This document shows positions 1,160 to 63,118 of a stretch of DNA of 64,000 bases, piece by piece. How positions within the stretch are numbered: position 1 is the first letter of the stretch; each line of letters begins with the position of its first letter. The notes below the pieces were generated by a model. That model did no database searches and had not been told where the DNA came from. It saw only the letters and a list, made by a program, of their open reading frames with translations. The stretch lies in IMG/VR virus record IMGVR_UViG_3300018915_000002. One strand, written 5' to 3'. Made by a program: the position numbers and the translations under genes. Origin of the DNA: a virus.

Positions 1160-1173
1160 CACGGAACTCCGTG
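1160..1173. repeat. Palindrome CACGGA-AC-TCCGTG
   Basis: Exact copy, between a stop codon and a terminator. Confidence 0.95.
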
Positions 1174-1176
1174 ATA

Positions 1177-1218
1177 CGAAAAACCCCTCGATCTTCACAA
1201 GGATCGAGGGGTTTTTCG
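1177..1218. terminator. Bidirectional intrinsic terminator
   Basis: CGAAAAACCCCTCGATC / GATCGAGGGGTTTTTCG inverted repeat between convergent genes. Confidence 0.8.
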
Positions 1219-1539
1219 CTAAGAGCGTCTTAATTGTTTCCGTGCATCGGGGTAGGAGTATTTATCGTCGGGCAATGGTTGCTCGTCGAGAAATATCTCG
1301 TAGCAATCGTTCCACGGATCAAAGAAGCGTCCGGGTTCCTTTTCCCAATTGCTTTGTAGGCTGAGAGAACGATGAACTCCTTTGGGTGTTATTTCTAGTT
1401 CAGCAATTATTGTTGCCCCACGGCAAGCAATAAGAGCCTTCTGTTCGACGGCTGACTGATTTCTACTCCTTTGTATTACAACAGGCGAATACATCGGTAG
1501 AGCTTCTATTTCTCGAAAAGTTAGCGTGGTTTTACTCAA
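1219..1539 (-). CDS. Hypothetical protein
   Basis: 106-aa ORF ending at the terminator, co-oriented with 1563..1745. Confidence 0.55.
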   Translation of the reverse strand: MSKTTLTFREIEALPMYSPVVIQRSRNQSAVEQKALIACRGATIIAELEITPKGVHRSLSLQSNWEKEPGRFFDPWNDCYEIFLDEQPLPDDKYSYPDARKQLRRS

Positions 1540-1562
1540 TCATCTAATACATCAGGTGTTTT

Positions 1563-1745: not shown

Positions 1746-1902
1746 GAATTTTGCTTTAATAATTAGTAGACACTGGGCTGTTTTTGTTCAATCGGAATTA
1801 ACAGCCATCTTCCTTATTGTAACAAGCCTACAAAGTGATCGCAAAAATGTAGGTGAATTATCAAAAATAATTGATATTCTAAGTATCAAAGCGAGGAAAA
1901 GT

Positions 1903-3731: not shown

Positions 3732-3769
3732 GGCAAAGGTTTATACCTGTAGTAAGTGCCATCAAACCT

Positions 3770-4072
3770 CTACCGACCTTGATGTTTTGCGACGGCTTTG
3801 TGTGACCGACAACTGTCCGTATGACGATTAATGATGAGGTTTGTCTTGTTGAGTATGATCGCCGTTCTCTCAACTGCTACCCCAATCTCAAATAATGCCC
3901 ACGCACACTGCTGTTGTTGCTCTTGATTGAGTTTGTCCCACGGAAGTCCGTGACGGATTCTAGCGATATCGTTCAGCAGCCTCAGTTGGGCTGAGCCACT
4001 CATCGTCTGGAGAGTCAAATCCGCCAGTTGTGGGATACTCTTCTGTTGGGGGGAGACTGTAACCATCGGCAC
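3770..4072 (-). CDS. Hypothetical protein
   Basis: 100-aa ORF overlapping the upstream gene; start uncertain. Confidence 0.4.
   Translation of the reverse strand: MPMVTVSPQQKSIPQLADLTLQTMSGSAQLRLLNDIARIRHGLPWDKLNQEQQQQCAWALFEIGVAVERTAIILNKTNLIINRHTDSCRSHKAVAKHQGR
3939..3952. repeat. Palindrome CACGGA-AG-TCCGTG
   Basis: Exact copy, 7 nt from the stop at 3960. Confidence 0.9.
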
Positions 4073-4367
4073 TGACGTTCATCTCAGAGATGTTAGACAT
4101 AGATCCAGACGAGGCTGCAACATTCTCTACTGGTCGTTGGAACTGTTGCTGGACAACTGAGGCTTTCTTGGGATCGTAGATAATACCGCCTAACCCTCCC
4201 GCTGCTAATAGCGTTTGCGCCCAGGCGGGAAGATCGATTTTGTTGAGGGAGAGGATAACTACAGTGGATGCGATCGCAACAATAGACACACAGGTGGTTA
4301 GTGTGCCACCCGTCTTTTCAATGAAGTCCCCAACGGCATCTAAATTTTCCTTAAAGCTGGATGGCAT
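3960..4367 (-). CDS. Two-TM membrane protein, holin candidate
   Basis: Two hydrophobic segments and an acidic tail, next to the endolysin. Confidence 0.5.
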   Translation of the reverse strand: MPSSFKENLDAVGDFIEKTGGTLTTCVSIVAIASTVVILSLNKIDLPAWAQTLLAAGGLGGIIYDPKKASVVQQQFQRPVENVAASSGSMSNISEMNVSADGYSLPPTEEYPTTGGFDSPDDEWLSPTEAAERYR

Positions 4368-4406
4368 GGCTTTGAAGAGTGTTTGTCGATACCTTAGTTT
4401 AAACGC

Positions 4407-4444
4407 AAAAAAGCCGCCCACTAGAACTTCTAGTGGGCGGCTTT
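4407..4444. terminator. Intrinsic terminator hairpin
   Basis: AAAGCCGCCCACTAGAA / TTCTAGTGGGCGGCTTT. Confidence 0.7.
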
Positions 4445-4525: not shown

Positions 4526-4539
4526 TGCGGAACTCCGTG
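4526..4539. repeat. Palindrome variant TGCGGA-AC-TCCGTG
   Basis: 12/14 match, 1 nt from the WYL stop codon. Confidence 0.8.
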
Positions 4540-4540
4540 G

Positions 4541-5236
4541 TCAAGGGCGGTAATGCGCGATCGCACCTTCTAACTGATCTATCAGTCTTTCTCGTACCCC
4601 ACTTTGGCTGAGTATCTTGCAATTCTTCCCGTATTGGATGACTTCTCGGATGAACCAGAAAGTGCTAGTGATTTGACGAGTGATGACTTTGGTTTTCTTG
4701 TCCCAGTAATCTAGGCGATCATTCGGTTGCAGGACGTAGGCATGTGCTAGCCAGCCGTAAAGCTCAAACTGTACAGGTAGAACTTCCAGCCCCTCCCTCC
4801 AGGTTGCTGAGTCTAATGGCACAACAGCAGAATCCTCCTCAGGAATACGATCAATCCGTAGGCTCCAGTTGTGCTGAAGTCCTGGGATGTCTTGGTTGTT
4901 TTCAGTCTGGTCGCACCAGCATTCCAGGTAATGCCGTTTTTCTCGATATACAACCTCGGCATACCGAGCGGTGAAGGTGAAAAATCGCCCTGCTGCGTCA
5001 ACGTAGCTGAGGTGGAAGGGGACTTTGTTTGTAATCAGTTCAAGGATTTCCGTCGCTCTCTTGTTGTTTAAGTCAGCAGGCTTGCTAACCTGCACCTCTC
5101 GGTAGGCGATCGCTTTATACAATGCCGTCTGATTCCCTCGATCTCCCCAGTTGAATCCCTGTTCCTGTGCGATCAATTCAAACTGTTGTTGTTCCTGTTC
5201 GGTGACATTTAGCTGTACGGTGTTGCGCTTGCTCAT
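4541..5236 (-). CDS. WYL-domain transcriptional regulator with RHH-like N-terminus
   Basis: HYLECWC...WSLRIDRI (WYL); WFIREVIQYGKNCKIL (WCX). Confidence 0.85.
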   Translation of the reverse strand: MSKRNTVQLNVTEQEQQQFELIAQEQGFNWGDRGNQTALYKAIAYREVQVSKPADLNNKRATEILELITNKVPFHLSYVDAAGRFFTFTARYAEVVYREKRHYLECWCDQTENNQDIPGLQHNWSLRIDRIPEEDSAVVPLDSATWREGLEVLPVQFELYGWLAHAYVLQPNDRLDYWDKKTKVITRQITSTFWFIREVIQYGKNCKILSQSGVRERLIDQLEGAIAHYRP

Positions 5237-7044: not shown

Positions 7045-8721
7045 ATGATTGAGAAGTATCAATCAGCCCAGATAATTCCAAGCATCATCCAAACTTCTAA
7101 CGGCGACTATGCCCTACTGCTCTGGGACAAGGCAGTGGATCAAGACATTGTCACGGCTATCGAGCAGGGTCACACACTCGGCAACTACTGTTTGATTGGG
7201 GTTAGCGAAACGCCTTATGGCCCACTTTCTTGGATGTTATCTGCCATCGGTACAGTGGAGGAGTTCGCTGACCCTAATTCCACCCTGTTCTGGTTTGACT
7301 ATATTGTTAATCCAGGAAAAATCACCAGCTACGAGAAGCGCTGGTTCAAGATATTGAGCAAGCAATCTTCCCTGAGTCTTGGCATCCCATTAGGGACAAA
7401 AATTCGCCCCAACGGACTGATCTCTGACCGCACACTGGCGACATACCTTGAAGGCATCAACCACGCGATCGCTCATTGGCATATTGGCTGCGACTATGCC
7501 GCCGCTGTGGAGTGGCTCTGGAAGAATGAACTGGATGAACTCGTCAATGAAGCGATGCGAGAAATTCCCCAGAAGTACGGAAACCGCAATGGACAGGAAG
7601 TATTGGTTGATTGCTTAGGGCAAGCCGCCACTACTGTTTTAGATTCGGCTCATCCCCTGTGCCAGATTTATGAGCAGGGGCAGTTAGGGACGTATCTCCA
7701 AGCGTGGAAAAAGACAATTTCATTGAGTGATCTTAAAGAGCGATCGCAAGACCCAGCAGAAAACCTCAAACGAGACTGGCTTTTTGCCTCCACCTGCTTG
7801 ACCAAAAGTGAAAATCCCCTCAAGATTGCCGTGGGGTCTATCAATGGAACATGGATCTGGGCAGACTTTCCTTACAAGAGTAGTCGCCCAGAGTCCCTCT
7901 ATCTCCTGAGTAAGACTTACCGCTATTTGTTGGGGCATAACTTCAAGCCTTTGCTACATCGCAATGATGCTCTACTAAATCATCTTGAGCTTCCTGCCGT
8001 CGCCTCTTTAGGCAAAATACCCCAGCGCTCTTCCTTTGATCAAGTTGGCCGCATTCTCCAGGGAGCCATTCTTGACCGTGAGTTCGCCCTCCTTCAGCCA
8101 ACAGCAATCCTCGTAGGCAAACGGGGACTAGAAGAGGTTGAATATCACCCATTGACTAGGGGTGGTGTTTCCTGCCTCTTCAAGGTCAGGTTGATGGCAG
8201 ACTCTAATCGTGGGACGAATCTAGTCCTCGTTGGAAAACTGAACGCGGCTTCAGGAGTAATAGAAGCAATTGGGATAAAGGAAACTCCTGAGGTTAAGTT
8301 GATTTTGTTCCTCGTTGCGATAGCCTACCGAGATATCTTGGTTGCTCGGAATGCCGCAACTGTCCCAAGTAAGGGACGTGAAGGGAAGGGTAAATCCCCT
8401 CGTCGTTCACTAAGTCCCCCTGTGAAACTTGTGGCTCGTGTCAAGCAGTCCAGGACACAGATCCAGGAAACTTTTGCTGACCCACAGCAGTTGGTGCAGT
8501 CCTTACGAAAGTACAGCAGCTATCTACGGTCATGCCACCTGCGCCGTCTTCACGAAGGCTGGAATGCTTCTGAAAAGGCACTAAAGGTTGCTGAGCAATA
8601 TCAGTGGCTTGTTCCAGAAGGATTCACATTCGTGAAGCCAGCCATAGTTGAGGGGGATAGCGAGTTTAAGCTCAGGGAAGAATTCAAGTCCATATCCTTG
8701 ATGGATTTGCTATTTGGTTGA
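7045..8721 (+). CDS. Large hypothetical protein
   Basis: AGGAG SD before ATG 7045; long ORF with a C-terminal RSCHLRRL...TFVKP segment. Confidence 0.7.
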   Translation: MIEKYQSAQIIPSIIQTSNGDYALLLWDKAVDQDIVTAIEQGHTLGNYCLIGVSETPYGPLSWMLSAIGTVEEFADPNSTLFWFDYIVNPGKITSYEKRWFKILSKQSSLSLGIPLGTKIRPNGLISDRTLATYLEGINHAIAHWHIGCDYAAAVEWLWKNELDELVNEAMREIPQKYGNRNGQEVLVDCLGQAATTVLDSAHPLCQIYEQGQLGTYLQAWKKTISLSDLKERSQDPAENLKRDWLFASTCLTKSENPLKIAVGSINGTWIWADFPYKSSRPESLYLLSKTYRYLLGHNFKPLLHRNDALLNHLELPAVASLGKIPQRSSFDQVGRILQGAILDREFALLQPTAILVGKRGLEEVEYHPLTRGGVSCLFKVRLMADSNRGTNLVLVGKLNAASGVIEAIGIKETPEVKLILFLVAIAYRDILVARNAATVPSKGREGKGKSPRRSLSPPVKLVARVKQSRTQIQETFADPQQLVQSLRKYSSYLRSCHLRRLHEGWNASEKALKVAEQYQWLVPEGFTFVKPAIVEGDSEFKLREEFKSISLMDLLFG

Positions 8722-8809
8722 ATGTTCCGCAGTGGATTTAAACTTAGATCCACTGCGTTTCTTCTGTCCACTTCGCTTTAAACTTAAAGAGCCTTGGCTC
8801 GAACCGAAA

Positions 8810-9883
8810 ATGATGGACTTCATGCCCCACGGGGCTTGCTATCTCTGGGACGGAAAAATCATACTACTACACGTAGTTAGTGATGCTGGCATTGCTTTAG
8901 CGTATTTGTGCCTTCCGTTACTGCTTTGGCACTTTTCCCGGAAACGCAAAGACATCCCGTTTTCCTGGCTCTTCGCCATGTTTGGTGCATTTATTCTGAG
9001 TTGCGGCTCAACGCATCTTATGGGTATTTGGACATTGTGGCATCCCAGTTATTTGGCGGATGGATTACTCAAATTGGCGACAGCGGTAATCAGCCTAATG
9101 ACTGCGATCGCCCTTTTCACCCATCTGCCTGAGGTAATTGCCCTACCCTCTCCCTCTCAGATGTCCGAAAAGGAGCAACAACTGGAGGCGGCTTTGAAGA
9201 AGGAGCGGGAAATTAATGAATTTCGTCGGCGTATTGTCTCTACAGTGGCGCATGAGTATCGAACCCCACTAACGTCTATCCTCTCCTCTGCTGAACTGGT
9301 AGAGCGCTATCCAACTGGCAAGCGCTCAGTCCAGCACTTTGAAAATATTAGGAGAAAAATCACCTACCTTTCCAAGCTAATTGATGATGCCCTGATTCTA
9401 GATAAAGCTGAATCCGGGAGGTTGGAATTTCAACCTACTGAAATCGACGCAATTTCATGGTGTAGCGAGGTTCTTGCGGAATTAGATTGGGGAAAGCACA
9501 CGTTGCAGCTCAGTGCATTAGATGAGGCAGTAGGCTTATTCGATTTACGACTACTCAATGCCCTAGTTACCAATCTGGTGTACAACGCTTGTAAGTATTC
9601 CGATCCGGAATCTATTGTTTATGTTCGGCTACAAAGGGGTAACGAATCATTTATTTTGGAAGTTGAAGATCAGGGGATTGGCATTCCACTTGAGGATATT
9701 CCCCGCATTTTTGAATCTTACTTTCGAGCAGCCAATGTTGATTCTGCCCCTGGCACTGGTGTTGGACTTTCTATTGTGCAAGGATGTGTTAATCTCCACG
9801 ACGGCACTATCTCTGTTGTGAGCGAAGTGGGAGTTGGTACAACCTTTCGGGTTGTTTTGCCCCTGCGCCACGGAACTCCGTGA
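8810..9883 (+). CDS. Histidine kinase with ethylene-receptor-like 3-TM sensor
   Basis: FMPHG-CYLW, SDAGIALAY, AFILSCGSTH; H-box AHEYRTPL; N/G1/F/G2 boxes. Confidence 0.9.
   Translation: MMDFMPHGACYLWDGKIILLHVVSDAGIALAYLCLPLLLWHFSRKRKDIPFSWLFAMFGAFILSCGSTHLMGIWTLWHPSYLADGLLKLATAVISLMTAIALFTHLPEVIALPSPSQMSEKEQQLEAALKKEREINEFRRRIVSTVAHEYRTPLTSILSSAELVERYPTGKRSVQHFENIRRKITYLSKLIDDALILDKAESGRLEFQPTEIDAISWCSEVLAELDWGKHTLQLSALDEAVGLFDLRLLNALVTNLVYNACKYSDPESIVYVRLQRGNESFILEVEDQGIGIPLEDIPRIFESYFRAANVDSAPGTGVGLSIVQGCVNLHDGTISVVSEVGVGTTFRVVLPLRHGTP
9869..9882. repeat. Palindrome CACGGA-AC-TCCGTG
   Basis: Exact copy; overlaps the kinase TGA stop. Confidence 0.95.
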
Positions 9884-9929
9884 TAACGATTGCGTTACAA
9901 TAGAGGCAAGAGTTTTTCGGAAAATTGAA

Positions 9930-10867: not shown

Positions 10868-10881
10868 CACGGAACTCCGTG
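10868..10881. repeat. Palindrome CACGGA-AC-TCCGTG
   Basis: Exact copy, 2 nt from the stop at 10884. Confidence 0.95.
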
Positions 10882-12355: not shown

Positions 12356-12387
12356 AGCGCACCACGGAGTTCCGTGGTGCGCTTTTT
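12356..12387 (+). terminator. Terminator built around the palindrome (CACGGA-GT-TCCGTG at 12363-12376)
   Basis: AGCGCAC-CACGGAGTTCCGTG-GTGCGCT-TTTT. Confidence 0.8.
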
Positions 12388-13067: not shown

Positions 13068-15635
13068 ATGGTTTCCTTAGAAAAACTCGCCCGTCCAGAT
13101 TTCGCTGAAGGCAGATTTACAGACCTCAATGAAGGTCGAATAATGGGAGGACTCCCAGCCGAGATCACCTCGCTCAATGATCCAGAAAAGCTTGGTCGTA
13201 TCCAGGTCTGTTGCCCACTTATTGACGACACTGCAAACCTGCCAAACGGGGATGACGGTTGGATTCAAGCGATCGAGCTGTTTACGAATAACGCCACCCC
13301 CGGTGGTAGTCATCGTCTCCTGCACGTCGGTAGCCAAGTAATTTTACTACCTATACTAGGTCATCCCAACCAAATGATATTGCTGGGGTGTATCCCAAAT
13401 CGAATTGATCGCCCCTCTCCAGAAGTTGATCGCGCAGAAGGTCTCTACGGTCACCATACCCAGAATGGGGTTTTCAAAATTCGCAATGACAAGGAGCAGT
13501 CAGAAATCAATGCCTTTCCGCACGGTGTTACCCAACACGTTTCCGGCGGTGGAGATATTACGCAGCAGACTAAAGAGGGTGCGAAGGTTCAACTCAAATC
13601 TGACGGCACTGTTAGAAATGAAAATCCAAAAAGTTCAACGACACTCGCCCCAGATGGAACAGTTGAAACGAGGAACGCCGCCTCCGGCACCAGTGTGCTG
13701 ACCAAGGACGGGAACTGGGAAATTAAATCCAAGAACCAAGCCTCCCTCAAACTGAACGATGGCGATGCCGTGATGGAAGGTCCCAAGTCTCAACTTTCCT
13801 CCCTCGTCTCCGGACTCAAGCAAAAACTCGCCGGTACACTGGGACAGGGTGAATCTCTTGTGCGCCAAATCGAAGGACTCAAAGATTCGATTGGCAGCAT
13901 GAGTATAGAGAATTTATTGACCGAGTTACCCGATGCGATCGCCTCTGTAGACTCGATCATCAAATCATTCCCCGATGTACTCGATACCCTCGACGAAATC
14001 AAGAAGTTTCCTGTCGAGGAATTGGGCGACTCTCTGATGGGACAGGCTACCCAGTTCCTTGATGCGGGATTAGGAGGCATTATCCCTGTGATCCAGGAGG
14101 TATTATCCAGTCCCGGTGGCATCGAGGAGAAGGTTAGTGAACTGGTAGAAAACTTAGGCTATACAGGGTCTGTACAAGAGCTTCGCGACATCTTAACCGG
14201 ACTAGACGGGATGCCCGATATCCAAATACAAGCAATATCAAGCCTTGTAGCGCCTGGAGGCTTTGAAGCATCGAAGAATATATTTGGTCTGGGCTTAGAG
14301 TCTACACTGTCTAAACTAGATCTAAACCTGAGCTATACAGGCTCTGTACAGGGTCTAAACGAGACCTCTACGAATACCTCTATTCAAGGTCTAATACAGG
14401 GGTTGACAAGTACTGGTCAAGATCTAGTGCAGGGCTATACAGGCTCTGTACAGGATCTAAACCTAGCAACTGTTGCCAATACATTGAATAAACTTGGTCT
14501 CTCGCTCGACAAAGATGATCTGAACCTCGCCGCGATACTCAACCCAACCTTCACACCCAACCCCACTACACAGTCGGGCAATATCGCCTCGCTTGCCACG
14601 GAGTTCCGTGGCGCTCAACAATTCCTGAACCAGTTGATTGAGCAGGAAATCCCCAGTCTCCTACCTGCACCCCTCAAGGATCTGTTTAGCAATGACGATG
14701 TGATGAACATTGTCCAACTAGCCCTAATCGGTGGGAACCCGATGGGAATGTTGCTGGGTCAATCCGCTTCAAAGCTGATTGGGGATTTAGCGCCAACGCT
14801 ATTAGAAGGAGTAGGGCTGGGAGGTGCGATCGCGCCCGTCCAGCAGTTGCTCGGTTCTCTCCAATCCGGAAACCTGGAAGGTGTAGGAAGCATCATCGAC
14901 ACGATCATCCCTGGTCTAGATCTTGATAAGGTCTTGTCAGGTGGTGTACAGGGGATTGTAGAGAATGTATTGCCCGATGCTCTTGGTGGAATAACGGGAG
15001 CATTGGGTGGACTCTTCGGCGGCGGAAAGAAGAAGGCTAACTTAGCGTTCAATGCGCTGAATGGGGCTGCCAAAGGTGGAACGATTCGCGCTACCAAAGA
15101 TAAGGTAGAAGCCGTAGCTGATTCCGCCCTGCCCACCGCAAAAATGGTGATCACTCGAAGTAAAGCCGCCCTTGTTGCTCAGACTGGACTCGCCGAGGTC
15201 TTCGCTGGTGGTGCAACAGCCGGGGTCTCAACTCCTTATGGTAGTTTTGGGTTTGGAGCAGGTGGCGGTAGCCTATTTAGTAAGGGTGCGATGGCGATGC
15301 GGATTGCCCAAGATATTGGTAAATCTGCGGGTCTGGTGCTACATCCAAAGTCAGGCGTTTCCTTGGCGAGTTTTGCTGACAGTGATTTTGATCCAGATAA
15401 ATCAGACGACTGGGATAGGAAAACCGCTGAGGTGACGATTGATGAGGGGAACGTGTACATCGCCTCTCATGGTAGTGACCATGATGGGATTGCTGTTACT
15501 CCGAATGGCGTTTACCTGGAAGGGTGGCACATTCGGGAATTGGTTAACAGGCTTTCTAGCCTAGAGACTTCCTTTGCTGGATTGTCTGTTCAGTCTGTAG
15601 TTGATGATATGGTGGGAGGTGCAATTTTGCCTTAG
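13068..15635 (+). CDS. Baseplate spike protein (gpV/gp5/VgrG-like) with long helical insertion
   Basis: DPEKLGRIQV OB-fold motif, beta-strand repeats, Gly-rich C-terminus. Confidence 0.75.
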   Translation: MVSLEKLARPDFAEGRFTDLNEGRIMGGLPAEITSLNDPEKLGRIQVCCPLIDDTANLPNGDDGWIQAIELFTNNATPGGSHRLLHVGSQVILLPILGHPNQMILLGCIPNRIDRPSPEVDRAEGLYGHHTQNGVFKIRNDKEQSEINAFPHGVTQHVSGGGDITQQTKEGAKVQLKSDGTVRNENPKSSTTLAPDGTVETRNAASGTSVLTKDGNWEIKSKNQASLKLNDGDAVMEGPKSQLSSLVSGLKQKLAGTLGQGESLVRQIEGLKDSIGSMSIENLLTELPDAIASVDSIIKSFPDVLDTLDEIKKFPVEELGDSLMGQATQFLDAGLGGIIPVIQEVLSSPGGIEEKVSELVENLGYTGSVQELRDILTGLDGMPDIQIQAISSLVAPGGFEASKNIFGLGLESTLSKLDLNLSYTGSVQGLNETSTNTSIQGLIQGLTSTGQDLVQGYTGSVQDLNLATVANTLNKLGLSLDKDDLNLAAILNPTFTPNPTTQSGNIASLATEFRGAQQFLNQLIEQEIPSLLPAPLKDLFSNDDVMNIVQLALIGGNPMGMLLGQSASKLIGDLAPTLLEGVGLGGAIAPVQQLLGSLQSGNLEGVGSIIDTIIPGLDLDKVLSGGVQGIVENVLPDALGGITGALGGLFGGGKKKANLAFNALNGAAKGGTIRATKDKVEAVADSALPTAKMVITRSKAALVAQTGLAEVFAGGATAGVSTPYGSFGFGAGGGSLFSKGAMAMRIAQDIGKSAGLVLHPKSGVSLASFADSDFDPDKSDDWDRKTAEVTIDEGNVYIASHGSDHDGIAVTPNGVYLEGWHIRELVNRLSSLETSFAGLSVQSVVDDMVGGAILP
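14597..14610. repeat. Palindrome CACGGA-GT-TCCGTG
   Basis: Exact copy inside a CDS, extended as GC...GC. Confidence 0.95.
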
Positions 15636-17044: not shown

Positions 17045-17058
17045 CACGGAACTCCGTG
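17045..17058. repeat. Palindrome CACGGA-AC-TCCGTG
   Basis: Exact copy, 1 nt from the sigma stop. Confidence 0.95.
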
Positions 17059-18025: not shown

Positions 18026-18260
18026 GACTTTCTTGACTCGCCTTCTCGAACATCCTATCCCGGTTTGCCACAAAAAAGCGATCCGCATGTGGAGAATGCG
18101 AGTCGCTTGAGCCAGGGATACATCTCCCTGAATCATATATTTTTTTGCGGAAGAATACAAAAAAGCGATCGCAAGTGAACGATCGCTCAGCCAAGGTGAT
18201 CTACATTTGCAATCATGTTATCGTTTCTGTGGCTATTAAATGATTTACCCAAGCAAAACG

Positions 18261-21600: not shown

Positions 21601-22233
21601 ATGAACAAGCCCACAGAACAACTCAACGCGATCGCCTCCTCCCTGGAGGCTATCGCTTCACTGTGGGCGTATCGCAGCACGGAATTCCGTGGTCAAACCC
21701 GTCATGGAGAGATTATGAAACACAGGTTAATCAAGTTAATGGCAGGGGGCGCGATCGCACTCCCACTACTAATAACAACAACCTCTTGTAGAGGAGGCGC
21801 GACTGCTGTCCCAGTGGCACCGATTGTAGTAACTCCTGTTGCTGCTCCTTCGGTTGCCTCAGCTAATCCCCAAGCAGATAGGTGTCCTGATACGTGGACA
21901 GCGACTCTTTGGGTAAGTGATGTTCAACCAGAACAGGTTGAGGACATCAAGGTAACCGCCAAGTCTGATGCCGTATTCTGCCAACGCTTCGTTGGTAATA
22001 CTGATTCTGAGAAGGAATCAGAAGTAGGCGTAATGGTTAAGGTCGATGTGCCTGATATTTCAGCCGCACTGCCCCAGGAAACGATAACCTTCGCTAACCA
22101 AAAGGAAGCGGCGGAACACATCGCTAAGACCGAGGCTATGCTGTTGGATTCTGGGATAGAACCCAAAATCGATGCCACTCTCAAGCTCCTAGAAGAGGTT
22201 GGGTACAAGGTATCGGTCGGCTCTCTTGGATGA
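21601..22233 (+). CDS. Putative lipoprotein (alternative start 21715)
   Basis: MKHRLIK...LLITTTSC lipobox-like signal; leader motif before 21601. Confidence 0.6.
   Translation: MNKPTEQLNAIASSLEAIASLWAYRSTEFRGQTRHGEIMKHRLIKLMAGGAIALPLLITTTSCRGGATAVPVAPIVVTPVAAPSVASANPQADRCPDTWTATLWVSDVQPEQVEDIKVTAKSDAVFCQRFVGNTDSEKESEVGVMVKVDVPDISAALPQETITFANQKEAAEHIAKTEAMLLDSGIEPKIDATLKLLEEVGYKVSVGSLG
21678..21691. repeat. Perfect palindrome CACGGA-AT-TCCGTG
   Basis: Exact copy. Confidence 0.95.
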
Positions 22234-22594: not shown

Positions 22595-22608
22595 CACGGA
22601 ACTCCGTG
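22595..22608. repeat. Palindrome CACGGA-AC-TCCGTG
   Basis: Exact copy, intergenic. Confidence 0.95.
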
Positions 22609-28627: not shown

Positions 28628-28641
28628 CACGGAACTCCGTG
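28628..28641. repeat. Palindrome CACGGA-AC-TCCGTG
   Basis: Exact copy, 9 nt after a stop. Confidence 0.95.
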
Positions 28642-30545: not shown

Positions 30546-30857
30546 ATGCAAGAATTGGCGATGATACGACGCGATCGCACGGGTTGGTCGAAGGAAAAGA
30601 TATTAGGAGACGAACTTCGTATAGCCAGAGAGTGCCTGGGACTATCGCAAGAGGAATTGGGGCAGAGGATTGAATTGTCTCGACAACAGGTGGGGCTTAT
30701 AGAGCAGGGGAAGCGAAAGCTGGAGTGGGATGAATTTGAGAATTGGGCTACGGCTGTGGGGCGGACAACTGACAGCTTTCGTAGGATTGTCCGACAAGAA
30801 TTAGAGAAAAAAAAGCTACCACGGAACTCCGTGATAGAGGAAATTAAGGGTTCTTAG
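30546..30857 (+). CDS. XRE-family HTH regulator
   Basis: LRIARECLGLSQEELGQRIELSRQQVGLIEQGKR. Confidence 0.85.
   Translation: MQELAMIRRDRTGWSKEKILGDELRIARECLGLSQEELGQRIELSRQQVGLIEQGKRKLEWDEFENWATAVGRTTDSFRRIVRQELEKKKLPRNSVIEEIKGS
30820..30833. repeat. Palindrome CACGGA-AC-TCCGTG
   Basis: Exact copy in the 3' end of the XRE gene. Confidence 0.95.
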
Positions 30858-36701: not shown

Positions 36702-36702
36702 C

Positions 36703-36716
36703 CACGGAACTCCGTG
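36703..36716. repeat. Palindrome CACGGA-AC-TCCGTG
   Basis: Exact copy, 1 nt after TAA. Confidence 0.95.
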
Positions 36717-36721
36717 GTAAA

Positions 36722-36759
36722 GGAAAACCCGTTAGATCGGTTGATCTAACGGGTTTTCC
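36722..36759. terminator. Intrinsic terminator
   Basis: GGAAAACCCGTTAGATC / GATCTAACGGGTTTTCC. Confidence 0.8.
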
Positions 36760-36821
36760 TATGAAACAAGCCTGTAGTATCAATGTTACAATATAAGTGT
36801 TGGCGTTAATAAAGCAGAATC

Positions 36822-37706: not shown

Positions 37707-37707
37707 C

Positions 37708-37721
37708 CACGGAACTCCGTG
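37708..37721. repeat. Palindrome CACGGA-AC-TCCGTG
   Basis: Exact copy, 1 nt after TAA; terminator at about 37728-37763. Confidence 0.95.
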
Positions 37722-37928
37722 ACACTGAATCCCCTGGAAGAAAAATCCAAGGGGATTTTTTTTGGAACCTTTCGGTAAAAAAACGGATTCTGTCTGACAA
37801 TCCATGTGGTAGATTGTTGACAGATTTAGAAAGCAACTTCTTCTTTACAAAGCCCCTCCGGGTGAGCCGCTTTATGCGCTTCTTTCGGAGGGGCTTTGTC
37901 TTTTTGCCCCCTATCCTTCCCTGCTGCC

Positions 37929-43431: not shown

Positions 43432-43445
43432 CACGGCTCTCCGTG
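43432..43445. repeat. Palindrome variant CACGGC-TC-TCCGTG
   Basis: 1 mismatch; fills a 24-bp intergenic gap. Confidence 0.8.
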
Positions 43446-48490: not shown

Positions 48491-48987
48491 CTATTAGCTA
48501 TAAAAGAAACCGGAATTTTTTCCTTCGCTTTGTTGATGGCGAATTTGAAGGAACATCGTTTCCTGATGATATGGCGAATCCTGATCGCCAAGCCCTCCAA
48601 GAATGGCTAGATGCAGGGAACGAAGTAGAAGAAATACAATCCGCTGCTCCAGAGCCATCTGTAGACAAATGGAAAGGACTTGCCGCCGCATTCAAATTAT
48701 CTGAACTCAATGGCATTCTCAAGGGACTTAAAGATGCAGGGGATAACCCAAAAGTCAACGCCATCTGGCGAATCTCCGATGACCTGACGTTAGTGATCTT
48801 GAACGATGTATTCAGCGACGATATTCGCACGAAGTCAATGACGCAAGAGTTCATCGCTTTATTCCAGAAATTAGAGGAAGGGGAAGTAGTGGTGCCTGAC
48901 TCAGCTCGGATCGAGATTCGCGAAGCTTTAGAAAGACTGGGCTTTGACTCAGTTGTTGAAGCCTTGTCACGGAATTCCGTGGTCTAA
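48487..48987 (+). CDS. Probable tail-fibre assembly chaperone
   Basis: P.D..N.DR....EWL.AGN motif directly after the fibre gene. Confidence 0.6.
   Translation: MTISYKRNRNFFLRFVDGEFEGTSFPDDMANPDRQALQEWLDAGNEVEEIQSAAPEPSVDKWKGLAAAFKLSELNGILKGLKDAGDNPKVNAIWRISDDLTLVILNDVFSDDIRTKSMTQEFIALFQKLEEGEVVVPDSARIEIREALERLGFDSVVEALSRNSVV
48968..48981. repeat. Perfect palindrome CACGGA-AT-TCCGTG
   Basis: Exact copy at convergent stop codons. Confidence 0.95.
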
Positions 48988-50487: not shown

Positions 50488-50522
50488 AGTCCTCGTCACG
50501 GAGTCCCGTGGTGAGGACTTTC
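50488..50522 (+). terminator. Terminator built around palindrome variant CACGGA-GT-CCCGTG (50497-50510)
   Basis: AGTCCTC...GAGGACT-TTT. Confidence 0.7.
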
Positions 50523-52987: not shown

Positions 52988-53001
52988 CACGGAACTCCGT
53001 G
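52988..53001. repeat. Palindrome CACGGA-AC-TCCGTG
   Basis: Exact copy, abuts the stop at 53002; terminator at about 52951-52980. Confidence 0.95.
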
Positions 53002-54853: not shown

Positions 54854-54855
54854 TG

Positions 54856-56241
54856 TTAATTTCCTATTAGCGATCGCACAATTGCTTCAGCAAGCTTGCA
54901 GGGAACGCCATTCCCAATCCCCTTGCAAGCCAATGTGTTCTTTACTGGCAACTCATACCAGTCTGGTAACGTTTGGAATCGGGCAAGACACCGAGAGGTC
55001 ATCTGCACGACTCTTGCCGAGTTTAAGATTGCCTTTGGCGTAGAGGCTGGACGACGCATCTTCTCTGCCGTGATCGTGAACGACGGCTCATCCATTTCCC
55101 TGACTGTGCAGTCACGGATCGTGTTGACGACATCAATTAGCACGGCTTTTGACTGATGGCTGGGTTTGCCATCGGTAATTACAGTTGGTGCGGGTTCAGA
55201 GTACTCCCTAATCCCATCCCCATACTCCTGATTCGGGTTTTTGGACTGAATGAGCATAGCCCTTAAGGCTTGGTGGCTGCTAGTAACAGTGAGAGCCGGC
55301 TCCTCGTGTTGTCGAGTTGATACAGATTCGCCTCTATTTCCAATGCCACAGACTAAAACAGCCTTGGGTCTATTTCCGGTTCGCTCGGTATCACTTACGG
55401 TTGCCGCAGGTTCGTAGCCTTCACGGATAGTGAAGCTACTGGCATTTCCTCCAGGAACTAAGATTGCTCTAGCTTTGCTATTTGTTGCTGCATCAGCAGG
55501 GATTGTAGGTAGAGGCTGATCCCTTTTTCTTATCCCTGGAATCGTTGGACGGTTATCTATTGCGAATTGCAAGAAGCTTTCCGAGCAGTTCGAGCCACCA
55601 ATCCACAAATCCCCATCAATGTCTTGCCCTTTTTCAAGGGCAGCCCCTAGTCGATCTAGCTGCCACTTGGCAAGCTTTGTTTCTGGCAGGGTTGGCAATA
55701 AATCCTCAATTGACTGATACCATCCCATCCAGTCCTGGGTTTGCGGCATTGGTGGTACAAATCCATGTCTGACCGCACGGAGAATCAATCTTCTACGGGT
55801 CTGAGGAACCCCGAAGTCGGCGGAATTGACTACCTGTCGGTCAATCCAATATCCGAGGCTATATAGCGTATCCTCTATTATTTTCAAAGACTTACTTCGC
55901 TTGTAAGCCTCGACGTTTTCCAGGATGAAATACTGGGGTTCTAAGGCTGTAATGGCATCCTCAATTGCAAAAGCGAAGTCCAGATCTAAGCCACTTTCCT
56001 TCGCGCCCTTCTTCGCTACGCTGAAATTAATGCATGGAGGGCTAGCCCAGAGGATGTCGGGCTTCTCTAGTTTTCTAAAATCGGTTTTGCTCACCGATTG
56101 ACATAGGACTTTGTGTCCTAGTTGACGAGACACTTCTGCGATCGCCTCATCAATCTCAATTCCCCAAGCCAGTTCACAACCTGCCAGTTTTGCGCCAATG
56201 TCGGCTAGTCCAAAGCCAGTGAAAAGTGATGCAAAGATCAT
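54856..56241 (-). CDS. DNA (cytosine-5) methyltransferase with repeated variable region
   Basis: LFTGFG (I), SPPC (IV), ENV (VI), QTRRR (VIII), RFQT (IX), GNGV (X). Confidence 0.93.
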   Translation of the reverse strand: MIFASLFTGFGLADIGAKLAGCELAWGIEIDEAIAEVSRQLGHKVLCQSVSKTDFRKLEKPDILWASPPCINFSVAKKGAKESGLDLDFAFAIEDAITALEPQYFILENVEAYKRSKSLKIIEDTLYSLGYWIDRQVVNSADFGVPQTRRRLILRAVRHGFVPPMPQTQDWMGWYQSIEDLLPTLPETKLAKWQLDRLGAALEKGQDIDGDLWIGGSNCSESFLQFAIDNRPTIPGIRKRDQPLPTIPADAATNSKARAILVPGGNASSFTIREGYEPAATVSDTERTGNRPKAVLVCGIGNRGESVSTRQHEEPALTVTSSHQALRAMLIQSKNPNQEYGDGIREYSEPAPTVITDGKPSHQSKAVLIDVVNTIRDCTVREMDEPSFTITAEKMRRPASTPKAILNSARVVQMTSRCLARFQTLPDWYELPVKNTLACKGIGNGVPCKLAEAIVRSLIGN

Positions 56242-57059
56242 TCACTTCCTCCTTCACGGACTTCCGTGGTGAAGTTTAAAGCCCAGACCCAAGGGTTGGG
56301 ATAAGCATGGCAGGGAATACCCTTGCGACAAGCATTGAGGGGCTTTTCGGGGATGTCATCCTCGTCCCAAGGGTAGCAGATATAGTAAGCAAGGGTTCCC
56401 CCTTTACGGACGGGAGTCCATTTACCATTTATCTCGTTCCATAGCGATCTGAAACTTCGTCGTCCAGCATCTCCGTCCTGGCTTGTGCAGGGCACTTGAA
56501 GTTCGTAGTTAAAGTATCGCACTCGGCTTTTAAACGGAGGGATTGCTCGCAAGATTTCTAAGGGTTGTATTCCTTCTCTGATCGCATCCTCTTCACTAAT
56601 CTCACTAATGCGCTGAACCCGAACCTCGGTGATCTCCCTCCAAATCCTAGCTGCCCACTTGGGCATGAATATTGCACTATGGCTTTCCGTTTCTTTGTGA
56701 TGCGCCCAAGCAATCATCGCTCCCTCATTCTTCTTTGCAACCATGACTGTTTCATGATCCGCGTCATAGTGCCAGCAGTGGTCGCTACCAAGGTAGAGCG
56801 ATTCTTTACAGTAAAGGCGATCGCCTACTTTGTATGGAGCCTTCGATAGCATCAAGGGACTATCTATCAGTGGTGCGTTAGCTTTTTTGTCTCTCCGCCA
56901 CACCCAAGAGCCATTCTCTAAAGTGGGCTGAGGATCGATTATTCTTCGGGTTTGAGTCTTGGGACTTTCATCTCTAAGCAATGCCTTGATCAGGTGCGGC
57001 TTAAAAAGTAAGCCGATATCCTTGCCAGTGGCGACTGGCTCTTTGTCGATGGTTTGCAT
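56238..57059 (-). CDS. ASCH/PUA-like phage protein
   Basis: KTQTRR, GDRLYCKE, FMPKWAAR, ISEEDAIREG, NPWVW. Confidence 0.75.
   Translation of the reverse strand: MQTIDKEPVATGKDIGLLFKPHLIKALLRDESPKTQTRRIIDPQPTLENGSWVWRRDKKANAPLIDSPLMLSKAPYKVGDRLYCKESLYLGSDHCWHYDADHETVMVAKKNEGAMIAWAHHKETESHSAIFMPKWAARIWREITEVRVQRISEISEEDAIREGIQPLEILRAIPPFKSRVRYFNYELQVPCTSQDGDAGRRSFRSLWNEINGKWTPVRKGGTLAYYICYPWDEDDIPEKPLNACRKGIPCHAYPNPWVWALNFTTEVREGGSE
56255..56268. repeat. Palindrome CACGGA-CT-TCCGTG
   Basis: Exact copy in the last codons of a gene, just upstream of the methyltransferase start. Confidence 0.9.
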
Positions 57060-58654: not shown

Positions 58655-58668
58655 CACGGAACTCCGTG
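58655..58668. repeat. Palindrome CACGGA-AC-TCCGTG
   Basis: Exact copy between the terminator at about 58676-58714 and the ATG at 58650. Confidence 0.95.
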
Positions 58669-59429: not shown

Positions 59430-59499
59430 GGCTTTGCCTTAAATCAACTAAGACACTAATTGCGTCTGTAATCTTATTGTAACAAATTACCATAGAAAT

Positions 59500-62400
59500 T
59501 TAGTTGCAAAACACGCGACCAATGGTTGGTTCAGTGAACGAAATAACAATCGTATTCCTGTCGATATATCTCACATCCCCATAGGATTTATTCCCTTCTC
59601 CATCCACCGTATCCACATAAGTCACAGACGGATACTTGCCCAAATTATGATCAATTCGCACCTCTAGGCTTAGTGTCTCAATGGTATGGGGGAAGTGCTT
59701 ATCCCCTCCTTTGTCGCGAATCAAGTCACGTAGCGATCGCAGGATTTCGGTCAGGCTTTCAGGATCAACAGCAGGTTCAGAGGGTAGAGTTGTAATCACG
59801 GGTGTTGTTGGGATTAATCCAGACGTAGTGGGTAAGCCAGCCAGTTGCAGTAGCTCAGTCGTTAGATTTGGCAGAATTTCTTCTAGTAATACCTCCTCTT
59901 GTGGTGAACCTGCACCACTGGGTAACCTGAAGGGTACGTCAAAGACAAAGCCAATTCGTGCTTCATCGGGTGCATTCAGCTTGTAGTAGTAGTTCTGGTG
60001 CTGAATCAGTTTACCTGCAAGGGATAGTGATGCCGACTGGATGTAGGTGTCTTCCTTGGGTTGAAAGACAAACTCCAGGTACAAGTCCGTCATCTTCTCC
60101 TCGAACGAGAAGATCTGCGATCGCCTGACATCCTTCCCGACTGGAATCTTTTGCCCTTGCTTCTTCCAGAACATCGTTACAGGCTGCAAGATGTAATATT
60201 CCTCGGTAGTTTCTACCAAGAGCTTCCATTGCTCTCCATCGCTTGCTTGGGCAAGTAGCGGGTAGGCATCAAAGATTGAGAAATCCCCTTCCTGTATCTC
60301 TAGCTTGTACTGATTAACGTTTGTTGGGGTTAGACTGCTCCACCCTCCGAATACATTACAGAGATATCCGTCAATTTCAGGTGTAGCAGACAGTGTCTCT
60401 ACGGCGTTCCATTCCGATGTGTTGATACTGAGTGTCTCTATGGGGACAGCGACTTCTGTGATATCACCATCAAAACCAGAATCGTAGTAGTAAGGGTAGT
60501 TTTCGTAGCCATCGTTATAGGTAGCAACAAGAATGGGTTCTTCCAGCCCCATTTGAATGCGTGTCGTGGGGCTGATCCACACTCGTGGTGGATCATCCAC
60601 TCCCGCACTTAGCGTTTCTCCCGTTAGCGTTGGCTCAGGATCGAACTCATTGACTCCAAAATTGGCATCATCAAAGCCCTCGGTAATAGGATAGTTGCCC
60701 TGAGTCCTCGCCCTCTCAAACCCTTCAATGCTTCCAGCCTCAAAATCGATTGTGTCTGTTGCAGGACTAGATATTTCCTCTACTGGCTGAGTGACCGGTC
60801 TACTCACTGGAATACTAGGAGTAATAGGAGATGGCGAGAGGTCTTGGGTAATGGACGCATTCTCAAAGCCATTTAGAACAGGGTAGTTTCCCTGAACTTG
60901 TCCTCGTTCAAATTCAAGTAGGGGAACGCTTTGTTCCTCTTCTGTTTCTGTGATCACAGCCGCACTCTGGAAGTCACTAGAAGACAAGATAGGTGTAACT
61001 GGACTTTCTACTACAGCTTCGGCTACTTGAATTTGTTCAGGTCGGAAGACGGTCGCTGGTTTAAATCCAGGAACAGGAACACTTTGCTCCGCATATCCAG
61101 ACTCAAAGTTTGGTTCCGAGACATCTGTGGATTCTGATCTGAGGAAGCTTGCTTCTATCCAGTCCCCTTCCGGCACCTCTTCTGCTGAAGCATCATAGAA
61201 TCCCCCTGCATTAGGTCGTGGGATATAAATAGTCAGCGTTTCTTGGTATGTCTCTTCACTAGAAGTTACCTTTGGTGCGCCTTCTTCTTCATAAGGGACA
61301 AGTAACTGATTAGTTACAGAAGCAAGCGATCGTCCTAATGAGATGGTTAAGGTATCGGGACTGGAATCAAACTTAATTGGAATCCCTTCCAAACACCCTG
61401 TCCCTGGATGCTGCACCGTAATCGTCTCAGTAATTGTCCGTTCCTCCCAAGGTGAATACCAATAGGTTGGGGCAATTTCCGTATAGTAAGGGAGATCTTT
61501 CGTACTGATACTGAGTGTCTCCCCTTTTAAAGTGGGAACTGGTTCTAGGTTTACAGTTATTGAGAGGGATTCATGGTTTGCCCTCTCCCCAATTACCGTA
61601 CCCCACGGCTGCCCGTCCCACCATTCTGGGTCCCACATCCCCCATTCAATTTGGGATTTTACGGTTTCTATAGATGTGTAGGGATCTGCAACATCAAAAG
61701 ACCATAGAGTTCCGGCGTAAGCCCAGGTATTGGCAGGCAAATGCCAATCCTCCGTCGCCATGAGCTGACCCCATTGCATTCCATCAAACTCAAACTCGGT
61801 TACTGTCTGCTCTTCAACTGAGCGAGGAGTTTGGATTAGTGGTTGAATTGCAGGTTGCCGAATGCCTTGGAGCCAGCCAAATACAGTGGCAGTTGTTGTG
61901 ATTGGGAGGATTTCTAAATTAAGGTCGAAAATGTCTGGGAATATTCGATTCCACTCCGATTCCTGGAGGTAGAAGTGCATCCAGAGTTCGCGATCGCCCA
62001 TCCGTGAGCGATCTAGATAGATATCTGGCGGCTCTACATAGTTGAGTGTTTGAATGATTTCCCCGTCTTCAACCCTATCCTGCCAAGGCTCTCCAGGGGT
62101 GAGGCTACCTTCGTCCCCTGGTTCCACTAGCCCTCCCCACTCCCAAGCCCAATCCGCCTGGAGCGTAAAGTAGTCAGGTCGGTGGTGATTTCCCCAGTAG
62201 TTCCCCCACCCCAGTCGTTGTTTCTCTGGAAAGGTTTGATTTAGCGAAACATCATACGGGGTATTCCAACCGTGCCAATTGGGTGGCTCGTCGGTTGGAG
62301 TTGTCCCAAACGGGAGGTTGAGCAGTAAGCGTTTTTTATCCTCGAAGCGCAACCACATTGCGATCGCTTCTCGAATTCCCGCCTCACTTCCCTTGATTTG

Positions 62401-62709
62401 CCAGTATTTCCACGCCCGTTTAATTACATCAATTTTGGTAGCAATTGACCAAGTGGGTTTAAGTCCAACTCCGAGCCAATGACCGTCGAGAATTCCTAGT
62501 CCGACGAACTGCCCTAACCAGTCTAGATGCCCCCAACTCGCAGGATGATCCGGATCGTAGAAGTACTCCTGAAGCCGAATCTTGGAATAGATCTCATCTA
62601 GTTCTGGTTGGATGCCCCAGTCGCAAATATGCCGCAGCAATCCACGTTCCTCGTCCACCATCCGGGCGTAGATGGGGAGCATGTCATAGAGTCGTCGGGA
62701 ATAGGACAT
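59500..62709 (-). CDS. Baseplate wedge/tail protein I-like protein with long acidic extension
   Basis: LYDMLP..R..D, LDWLGQFVG, IKGSEAGIR (P2 gpI-like); C-terminal HNLGKYPSV. Confidence 0.75.
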   Translation of the reverse strand: MSYSRRLYDMLPIYARMVDEERGLLRHICDWGIQPELDEIYSKIRLQEYFYDPDHPASWGHLDWLGQFVGLGILDGHWLGVGLKPTWSIATKIDVIKRAWKYWQIKGSEAGIREAIAMWLRFEDKKRLLLNLPFGTTPTDEPPNWHGWNTPYDVSLNQTFPEKQRLGWGNYWGNHHRPDYFTLQADWAWEWGGLVEPGDEGSLTPGEPWQDRVEDGEIIQTLNYVEPPDIYLDRSRMGDRELWMHFYLQESEWNRIFPDIFDLNLEILPITTTATVFGWLQGIRQPAIQPLIQTPRSVEEQTVTEFEFDGMQWGQLMATEDWHLPANTWAYAGTLWSFDVADPYTSIETVKSQIEWGMWDPEWWDGQPWGTVIGERANHESLSITVNLEPVPTLKGETLSISTKDLPYYTEIAPTYWYSPWEERTITETITVQHPGTGCLEGIPIKFDSSPDTLTISLGRSLASVTNQLLVPYEEEGAPKVTSSEETYQETLTIYIPRPNAGGFYDASAEEVPEGDWIEASFLRSESTDVSEPNFESGYAEQSVPVPGFKPATVFRPEQIQVAEAVVESPVTPILSSSDFQSAAVITETEEEQSVPLLEFERGQVQGNYPVLNGFENASITQDLSPSPITPSIPVSRPVTQPVEEISSPATDTIDFEAGSIEGFERARTQGNYPITEGFDDANFGVNEFDPEPTLTGETLSAGVDDPPRVWISPTTRIQMGLEEPILVATYNDGYENYPYYYDSGFDGDITEVAVPIETLSINTSEWNAVETLSATPEIDGYLCNVFGGWSSLTPTNVNQYKLEIQEGDFSIFDAYPLLAQASDGEQWKLLVETTEEYYILQPVTMFWKKQGQKIPVGKDVRRSQIFSFEEKMTDLYLEFVFQPKEDTYIQSASLSLAGKLIQHQNYYYKLNAPDEARIGFVFDVPFRLPSGAGSPQEEVLLEEILPNLTTELLQLAGLPTTSGLIPTTPVITTLPSEPAVDPESLTEILRSLRDLIRDKGGDKHFPHTIETLSLEVRIDHNLGKYPSVTYVDTVDGEGNKSYGDVRYIDRNTIVISFTEPTIGRVFCN

Positions 62710-62764
62710 TAAACTAATTCGATTGCTACAATCGGTCTATCGTTTACTGGGAAGAAGTTGCCTC

Positions 62765-63118
62765 ATGACAAAGACAGTGGCAGTTTTTGCTTTCAAGGTT
62801 TGTGTTAAGTCAAATTTTCCTGAAAGGCTTGTCCCTCTGATCACAACAGCACTGCGTGGGGGTGAATCAATAACGTTTGTTGAGGTCGAAAACCTTTGTT
62901 TAGTGGCAAGAGGTCGCTTCATGACAGAGGTAGTGACGGCTTTTGTTTTCAAAGTCTGTGTTGAGTCTATTTCTCCCCAGCAAGTTGTCTCACATATTGC
63001 AGCAAGGCTACGAGATATTGAGTCGGTGACGTTTGTTGAGGTCGAAGAATTTCAAGAGCGGACAGGATTAATTTACTCTCAAACGGACAACGACATTAGC
63101 TACCACGGAACTCCGTGA
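62765..63118 (+). CDS. Hypothetical protein made of two tandem repeats
   Basis: F.FKVCV.S..P....ES.TFVEVE twice. Confidence 0.6.
   Translation: MTKTVAVFAFKVCVKSNFPERLVPLITTALRGGESITFVEVENLCLVARGRFMTEVVTAFVFKVCVESISPQQVVSHIAARLRDIESVTFVEVEEFQERTGLIYSQTDNDISYHGTP
63104..63117. repeat. Palindrome CACGGA-AC-TCCGTG
   Basis: Exact copy; overlaps a TGA stop at a convergent junction. Confidence 0.95.

Follow-up and report, generated by a model that had tools for sequence, protein, structure and literature searches.

The DNA analysed here is a stretch of 64,000 nt (hereafter the window; IMG/VR record IMGVR_UViG_3300018915_000002) taken from a metagenome contig of 242,772 bp, and because the proteins of the window sit on a contig of that size, its source is classified as a jumbo cyanophage-like element. 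The window has a G+C content of 47% and encodes phage baseplate, lysis and sigma-70 domains, two TnpB proteins, a C5 methylase, RuvC and DUF5131. Dispersed along it is a palindrome of 14 bases, CACGGA-NN-TCCGTG, which recurs at a mean interval of about 2.7 kb and is the subject of this study.

The window was extended by 23.8 kb upstream and 10.7 kb downstream (34.5 kb added) using further assemblies of this phage, obtained from samples in ENA, Logan and JGI, the overlaps having 100% identity with 0-2 mismatches each. The resulting composite of 98,511 bp (window coordinates -23,773 to 74,738, negative numbers lying upstream of the window) represents 41% of the replicon; downstream, every same-phage contig stops at about 74.7 kb. 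Contig L127, considered as a 98.9% relative, was rejected in that role: it is the same phage carrying single-base insertion/deletion (indel) errors and is therefore uninformative on the turnover of the sites. The phage had no match among INPHARED phages, PLSDB plasmids or in IMG/VR scans, and a 14-mer scan of IMG/VR returned single chance matches only. A profile search with the alignment of the baseplate-hub protein over metagenome contigs and genome contigs gave no match, nor did an Rfam scan of the window.

Anatomy of the palindrome

Twenty exact ACGGANNTCCGT copies were found in the window, compared with 0.03 expected from shuffled sequences, and three variant copies (4526, 43432 and 50497) raise the total to 23. 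On the plus strand the central dinucleotide is AC in 13 of them, GT in five, AT in two, and AG, CT and TC in one each; the positions and centre counts of these 23 sites agree in full with those of an earlier model-made reading of the window (the sequence-only reading). Under the relaxed definition CACGG-N4-CCGTG, for which about 0.06 chance copies are expected per window, the composite contains 34 copies. The arms are invariant in all 34, and the four-base centre is AACT or AGTT in 26. When these 26 copies were turned to AACT, the preceding base was C in 19 and the following base was G in 8 (McNemar P = 0.013; P = 0.019 when the copies of the related lineage D, described below, were added). 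With its asymmetric centre and preceding C, the unit is therefore about 16 bp long, (A)C-CACGG-AACT-CCGTG, and truly asymmetric, which means that the direction of a site is intrinsic. A partial base preference was observed at flank positions 1-2, and the pairing of the flanks further out was at the background level.

The stems show no compensatory changes, and degenerate copies break the pairing. As the arms are invariant not only in the 34 copies but also in the related lineages B, C and D, and compensatory changes are lacking, the sequence of the arms matters beyond their ability to pair.

Placement of the copies

The copies are concentrated at gene junctions: 29 of the 34 are intergenic or lie within 60 nt of a gene end, positions that make up 26% of the sequence (P = 7e-13), and 18 of the 34 stand between -30 and +60 nt relative to the 3' end of a gene. 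Below, plus and minus denote the orientation of a copy (AACT and AGTT on the plus strand, respectively), and copies for which neither is stated have none assigned.

Behind plus-strand genes, plus-oriented CACGGAACTCCGTG copies are found 19 nt after a stop codon (1160..1173), 56 nt past the AAA_24 gene 9834-10811 (10868..10881), and 22 nt past another gene, where a T-rich tract follows (22595..22608). The plus-oriented CACGGAACTCCGTG at 9869..9882 forms, together with the next A, the end (HGTP-stop) of the histidine-kinase gene 8714-9883; here and at -17956 the palindrome itself supplies the TGA stop. The kinase whose last codons are written in this way is phage-encoded and has an ethylene-receptor-like N-terminal domain (ETR1_N).

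Minus-strand genes are trailed as well, and the statement of the sequence-only reading that AC copies follow genes of both strands was correct. A copy with an AG centre, CACGGAAGTCCGTG, lies at 3939..3952, 7 nt from the 3' end of the minus gene 3960-4421, and a degenerate plus-oriented copy with two mismatches, TGCGGAACTCCGTG, at 4526..4539, 1 nt from the 3' end of the minus gene 4541-5236 (WCX domain). Plus-oriented CACGGAACTCCGTG copies occur between two minus genes at 17045..17058, 1 nt from the 3' end of the sigma-70 gene 17060-18160, adjoining the 3' end of a minus gene at 52988..53001, between two minus genes at 58655..58668, and in an intergenic position among minus genes at 63104..63117. 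The junction of two minus genes next to the C5 methylase gene 54856-56241 carries CACGGACTTCCGTG, with a CT centre, at 56255..56268.

Three further copies were located between genes. The symmetric AT-centred CACGGAATTCCGTG at 21678..21691 is upstream of the HTH_3 gene 20625-21350(-), and the plus-oriented intergenic CACGGAACTCCGTG at 28628..28641 marks one edge of a gene block that two copies also bound in lineage D. At 43432..43445, CACGGCTCTCCGTG, with intact arms and the centre CTCT, fills a 24-bp gap between plus genes in the long tail operon, as the sequence-only reading had described.

Other copies lie inside coding sequences (CDS). Two minus-oriented CACGGAGTTCCGTG copies at 107..120 (AGTT on the plus strand) and 224..237 share a CDS that ends at 1140; since they encode the identical peptide ARSSVV (the 117-bp units are identical at 53/117 positions), they probably derive from an old internal duplication and would thus be non-independent. 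The minus-oriented CACGGAGTTCCGTG at 14597..14610 lies within the baseplate-hub gene 13068-15635, where it encodes T-E-F-R. In addition, the plus-oriented CACGGAACTCCGTG at 30820..30833 occupies part of the last 38 nt of the HTH_31 gene 30546-30857, and an AT-centred CACGGAATTCCGTG at 48968..48981 forms the last codons of the plus gene 48487-48987, 2 nt from a convergent minus gene.

The remaining copies bear on the relation of the palindrome to transcription terminators. At 12363..12376, the minus-oriented CACGGAGTTCCGTG is the tip of a hairpin with eight extra pairs and a T tract, which has the shape of an intrinsic terminator, and the same shape is seen at 50497..50510, where the minus-oriented CACGGAGTCCCGTG, with intact arms and the centre AGTC, caps a long hairpin that has a T tract. 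These are the only two copies that have a long stem besides at least 6 T in the 8-nt window beside the hairpin, the latter being present at 5 of the 34 copies; the site in general is thus not a GC-rich stem followed by a U tract. The plus-oriented CACGGAACTCCGTG copies at 36703..36716 and 37708..37721 each begin 1 nt past a TAA stop and are followed by canonical terminator hairpins with T tracts of their own, the first of them (36720-36758) 3 nt further on and the second (37728-37764) with a T8 tract. The palindrome is accordingly to be kept apart from the termination signal. Both lie in tandem single-gene cassettes (36699-36830 and 37704-37770) composed of a stop codon, the palindrome, a separate intrinsic terminator, a TGTTACAAT promoter-like box (36784) and the next gene.

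Related lineages and the copy in the hub gene

Homologs of the baseplate-hub protein (13068-15635) that are 70-78% identical were found on other contigs. Lineage D (L151; hub protein 71% identical) has the same motif with AACT/AGTT centres, five copies in 14.5 kb (4 AACT, 1 AGTT). In lineage B (L140 and other contigs, 237-245 kb; 78%) the centre is AGAA/TTCT in 3/3 copies in 22.5 kb, and a TTCT copy stands in a place similar to that of the window copy 21678. Lineage C (L150; 70%) has one intact copy, with the centre ATCT.

The copy in the hub gene is orthologous in the four lineages (window 14597-14610, L140:11488, L150:5129 and L151:11467). It encodes T-E-F-R (AGTT) in this phage, T-E-L-R (AACT) in lineage D, T-E-N-R (AGAA) in lineage B and T-D-L-R (ATCT) in lineage C, so the changes of the centre alter one residue (F, N or L) and the arms are held. 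All 10 arm positions are invariant in the four lineages, and three of them are synonymous third positions; in the hub gene as a whole, four-way invariance of third positions is only 14%. The copy is the sole same-phase window of 760 with such invariance, and its flanks are highly divergent. We regard this invariance at synonymous positions as direct evidence that selection acts on the arms at the DNA level. The centres of the orthologous copies, which differ across the lineages, imply that the centre can flip and that a coding GT copy is not bound to GT. Judged from the copies compared, the four-base centre is lineage-specific, being fixed within a lineage and different between lineages.

Strand orientation

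According to the sequence-only reading, the core of the palindrome is polarised by DNA strand and not by transcription, and every GT copy is constrained. The independence of transcription was confirmed: gene-end copies, read in the mRNA sense, are about 10 AACT and 10 AGTT. The strand polarity was not. The AC:GT ratio of 13:5 in the window has a two-sided P of 0.096 (exact copies 12:4, P = 0.077), and over the 98.5 kb of the composite the exact copies give 16:10 (P = 0.33) and those with variants 17:12 (P = 0.46), the upstream 24 kb containing 6 GT versus 3 AC. Ten consecutive AC copies extend from 17045 to 68388 (P = 0.016, exact copies), a run that the GT-like variant 50497 interrupts if included (P = 0.34). 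When change points of orientation were tested by permutation, P was 0.08-0.12, and orientation over the composite was split near-evenly, with no switch matched by GC skew. GC skew was rejected as an explanation of orientation, as it follows gene direction. The strong co-orientation with a switch that is seen for Chi and KOPS was likewise absent over 98.5 kb. Given the 16:10 split, the change-point result and the lack of a GC-skew switch, replicon-wide strand polarity is not supported, although a weak regional pattern may exist in a replicon of which 41% was read, and the apparent polarity of the window is a sampling effect of one 64-kb window.

The claim about GT copies stood for those in the window, where 107, 224 and 14597 lie in CDS, and 12363 and 50497 at the tips of long hairpins with T tracts, but not beyond it. 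Free GT copies occur upstream, at -3004 (3 nt past the stop of a plus gene, with one extra stem pair only) and at -22155 (intergenic), and lineage D has AACT at the codons that correspond to 14597.

Spacing

The largest gap between CACGG-N4-CCGTG copies is 6,033 bp, which reproduces the earlier estimate of about 6.0 kb and compares with about 10 kb expected for 23 random sites. Under a uniform null, the probability of a maximum gap as small as that observed was about 0.012-0.025 for the 23 sites of the window and 0.0006-0.002 for the composite, and when the null was limited to gene junctions it was 0.038 and 0.0024, respectively. Because such a maximum is improbable under both nulls, an upper bound on spacing is supported. 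The view that density is under constraint was therefore upheld, the absence of any gap above 6.03 kb being rarer than the junction-restricted null predicts. The even spacing asserted by the sequence-only reading held when copies with degenerate centres were included (maximum 6.03 kb, P = 0.002-0.04), but the exact copies alone, with a largest gap of 11.26 kb (P = 0.6), were indistinguishable from random.

Recombination, transposition and partition

An asymmetric core between inverted arms had also been taken to indicate a recombinase crossover site. No tyrosine or serine recombinase was found among 60 scanned open reading frames (ORFs) of the window (Pfam) or in the Pfam annotations of the 34.5-kb flanks, and the MerR-resolvase encoded by lineage D has no homolog in the 98.5-kb composite. 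The conserved arms are 5-6 bp each, short of the about 11-13 bp of recombinase arms. With no recombinase in the 41% of the replicon read, arms that are too short and mixed orientations, the crossover idea was not borne out.

Indels bounded by sites, which the sequence-only reading had proposed to look for, were not seen within the phage, but some block edges of lineage D do coincide with copies. The phage was assembled from at least 4 samples, and these assemblies are colinear throughout the 98.5 kb; nine lineage-B assemblies differ by one 390-bp indel (L140:5333-5722) that is away from any copy. That indel has a 3-bp microhomology at its junction, which is also the precise point at which several contigs break. 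DNA similarity to lineage D ends exactly at copy 30820 / L151:7071, where the orientation of the copy relative to the HTH_31 gene is the same in lineage D. Moreover, a three-gene block is bounded by two copies both in this phage and in lineage D, its position relative to the hub gene being different, and a Thy1-DCD insertion in lineage D has a copy at one edge. However, about 30% of gene junctions carry a copy, and coincidence with breakpoints is therefore expected, so that these module edges are weak evidence.

The copies do not have the character of REP/RAYT or IS200/IS605 end hairpins. No TnpA/RAYT gene was found in 98.5 kb; three divergent TnpB genes (23-31% identical) are present and are not consistently flanked by palindromes. 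The scanned ORFs contain no ParBc domain, and no ParB or KorB-like gene was seen. Upstream of the window, at L128:4880-5836 (window about -6969 to -6013), lies a gene for a Rep_1 (PF01446) rolling-circle-type HUH protein of a plasmid Rep family, with a palindrome copy 16 nt before its start codon. The flank 'GTGATA' was compared with the nick site of pC194-type Rep proteins, and this idea was dropped, the flank being present in only 3 of 26 copies.

Distribution outside the phage

No CACGGANNTCCGTG copy is present in five genomes of filamentous cyanobacteria, which include a Microcoleus vaginatus assembly. In 401 further genomes of the class there are 11 CACGGANNTCCGTG copies in total, none of them AC- or GT-centred, which equals the level of a reversed-pattern control. 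The motif is thus phage-specific and near-absent, at background level, in the 406 cyanobacterial genomes sampled. Nor was a copy found on the Nostoc sp. C052 plasmid pC052_F (NZ_CP040278.1). This plasmid of 223 kb from a cultured Nostoc (L139) encodes a distant homolog of the hub protein together with TnpB, IscB and IS200/IS605 genes, and may be a phage-plasmid relative.

At no fewer than 120 unrelated, mostly GC-rich metagenome loci (L152-L271), two CACGG-N4-CCGTG sequences were noticed with a separation of 10-40 bp. The centres of these pairs are, for example, CACG, CATG and CCGG, and some other repeat family has these arms.

Other genes of the phage

The 98-kb composite contains no fewer than three genes for C5 DNA methylases, together with one for DpdA (7-deazaguanine DNA modification), this set being located at -2112..-949, 54856-56241(-) in the window, L131:1976-3010 and L131:5245-6108; with so many modification genes, the phage DNA is probably heavily modified. 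The phage also encodes a Ro60/TROVE protein (L128:2214-3824). An actin-like protein (24048-25253) is kept among the lineages (MreB-like_C domain in the relative, at L140:20092-21291; weak PHROG match to 'partition protein') and may belong to a segregation or positioning system.

Discussion

The explanation that we favour, and to which we would give an even chance, is that the copies are recognition sites in duplex DNA for a sequence-specific protein encoded by the phage, set at gene junctions at a minimum density, with a centre specific to the lineage and an orientation that is free. From these features we infer that a protein reads the duplex, as well as its identity and the effect of its binding. 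Two inverted half-sites of 5 bp (CACGG / CCGTG) separated by 4 bp would offer a layout for a dimer. The sites lie where coding stays undisturbed, in many cases with a stop codon on one side and a separate terminator on the other, and would be kept at a density that leaves no stretch beyond about 6 kb free of them. Minimum density combined with placement at junctions is the pattern to be expected of a bound protein whose task is to cover or organise the genome in its entirety, and it would accordingly be loaded, or bridge, insulate or mark the phage's own DNA, throughout the genome and not at one locus. The direction of the sites does not serve as a genome-wide polar signal.

Several points weigh against this explanation. 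The candidate proteins of the window are generic only: the HTH_31 (30546-30857), HTH_3 (20625-21350) and WCX (4541-5236) proteins and the sigma factor. A symmetric dimer does not explain the conserved asymmetric centre and flank. The even spacing hinges on sites whose centre is degenerate, among them 43432 midway along the tail operon. In lineages B and C the number of copies per kb is 3-6 times lower, so a strict demand on density does not hold universally. Finally, the data come from 98.5 of 242.8 kb.

A more specific and rather speculative version, which we consider possible but would not put forward with confidence, is a 'self-lattice' in which a phage reader protein co-evolving with the centre needs a site every 6 kb or so, either for loading a sliding or bridging protein or as hairpins from which the Rep_1 HUH protein would start or restart DNA synthesis at many points. 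If true, this would be a genome-organisation or multi-origin system of a kind not described for phages, and a regional pattern of orientation could still emerge on the other 59% of the replicon.

It is unlikely that the copies act instead as RNA elements, with a 5-bp stem and a 4-nt loop at gene 3' ends that protects or processes mRNA or aids termination. The 18 copies close to 3' ends and the two that form the tips of real terminator hairpins, 12363 and 50497, would suit such a role. However, the even split with respect to transcription means that transcripts would bear two different loops, AACU and AGUU. The stems have no compensatory changes, the T tract is missing at most copies, 36703 and 37708 have their own terminators after them, and in four lineages a copy deep in the hub gene has its synonymous sites conserved.

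We similarly doubt that the copies are recombination or cassette-boundary sites, at which crossover, or shuffling by short homology as in the PeSL elements of T4-type phages, would insert, delete or invert modules. These phages are mosaic, the similarity to lineage D, the three-gene block and the Thy1-DCD insertion have edges at copies, and lineage D does encode a resolvase. There are also precedents in the deletions between the repeats of Cluster O mycobacteriophages and in PeSL mini-circles (PMC2839356). Neither a recombinase nor a homolog of that resolvase was found in the composite, the arms are too short for known half-sites and point both ways, and the only strain-level indel, that of lineage B, is not at a copy. 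The colinearity of the assemblies also argues against this reading, and the coincidence of breakpoints with copies is to be expected. Exchange driven by homology, of the kind known from PeSL elements and Cluster O, is a minority possibility.

Very little speaks for a functionless by-product, that is, a short sequence that is drifting after gene conversion or the duplication of cassette ends had multiplied it. The extended flanks that some copies have in common (gctaac at 36703 and 37708, agctac at 30820 and 63104) suggest that longer units were copied, but the arms are conserved at synonymous sites between lineages at about 70% protein identity, they persist even though the centre, within a lineage, changes in a concerted way, and the spacing is non-random. 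Least credible of all is a strand-polar signal for replication, packaging or translocation resembling Chi or KOPS, or a single-stranded DNA hairpin nicked or bound by the Rep_1 HUH protein, because neither the intrinsic asymmetry of the site, the AC run from 17 to 68 kb with a change-point P of 0.08, nor the copy next to the Rep_1 gene outweighs the 16:10 ratio, the reversed 6:3 ratio upstream without a matching GC-skew switch, the flip of orientation at the orthologous hub site and the fact that replication-interacting motifs show an orientation bias around the chromosome (PMC1939737).

The proposed protein-recognition sites can be set beside several known systems. The core sites of serine and tyrosine recombinases (hix, res site I, att, lox/FRT) likewise have inverted arms around a short asymmetric centre that gives direction. 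Their arms are 11-13 bp long, and a replicon carries just one or a few of them, along with the recombinase that acts on them, whereas the palindrome has arms of 5-6 bp, about 100 copies and mixed orientation, with no recombinase in the 41% of the replicon that was read. Chi, KOPS and DNA uptake sequences are also short motifs over-represented along a replicon. Chi and KOPS differ in being non-palindromic and strongly co-oriented with replication, in contrast to the 16:10 ratio found here, and uptake sequences, which are specific to one lineage and lack an orientation bias, act in bacterial transformation, not in phages.

HIP1 (GCGATCGC) is an 8-mer palindrome found throughout cyanobacterial host genomes, mostly within genes, and tied to orphan methyltransferases (PMC4390886, PMC5861425). 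It resembles the palindrome as a highly iterated sequence without known function and has 69 copies in the window itself, but the 14-mer is specific to the phage, junctional, and at background level in the cyanobacterial genomes. The PeSL elements (promoter plus terminator stem-loop) of T4-type phages delimit single-gene cassettes of promoter, ORF and stem-loop, and circles joining adjacent sites do occur (PMC2839356, PMC4122927). In both cases, motifs recur at the boundaries between genes of a large, mosaic phage genome. PeSL elements, however, are about 50 bp or more in length, are confined to hyperplastic regions and recombine by homology, whereas here the unit is 14-16 bp, occurs genome-wide and also inside core genes, is usually apart from the terminator, and was not associated with any observed circles or site-bounded indels.

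The closest parallel is provided by the 17-bp repeats of Cluster O mycobacteriophages, TGTTCGG-NNN-CCGAACA, which number dozens per genome, have invariant inverted arms and an asymmetric, mostly constant centre (TTT/AAA in 29/34), show no meaningful orientation relative to transcription, lie both between and inside genes, and are missing from the host (PMC4351075). Deletions between these repeats have been seen, and a dimeric binding protein is suspected although no function is known (PMC4351075). The palindrome differs in sequence, in arm length (5-6 versus 7 bp) and in spacer length (4 versus 3 bp), belongs to an unrelated phage and host, favours gene 3' ends, has a centre that varies between sister lineages and a bounded spacing, and lacks the site-bounded deletions observed in Cluster O. 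The two nevertheless have in common the many copies, the invariant inverted arms, the near-constant asymmetric centre, the lack of an orientation rule, the occurrence of both intergenic and coding copies and the absence from host genomes, and by this analogy the palindrome belongs with the Cluster O repeats, in the sense of a kind and not of a homologous family. For dispersed palindromes of phages such as these, a function has been lacking for a decade, and the present case makes the question testable. With strand polarity removed as a lead towards a recombinase or replication signal, it offers three handles: sister jumbo cyanophages that keep the arms and change the centre, which predicts a reader protein that co-varies with it; a coding copy held by selection at synonymous sites in four lineages; and an apparent upper limit on spacing.

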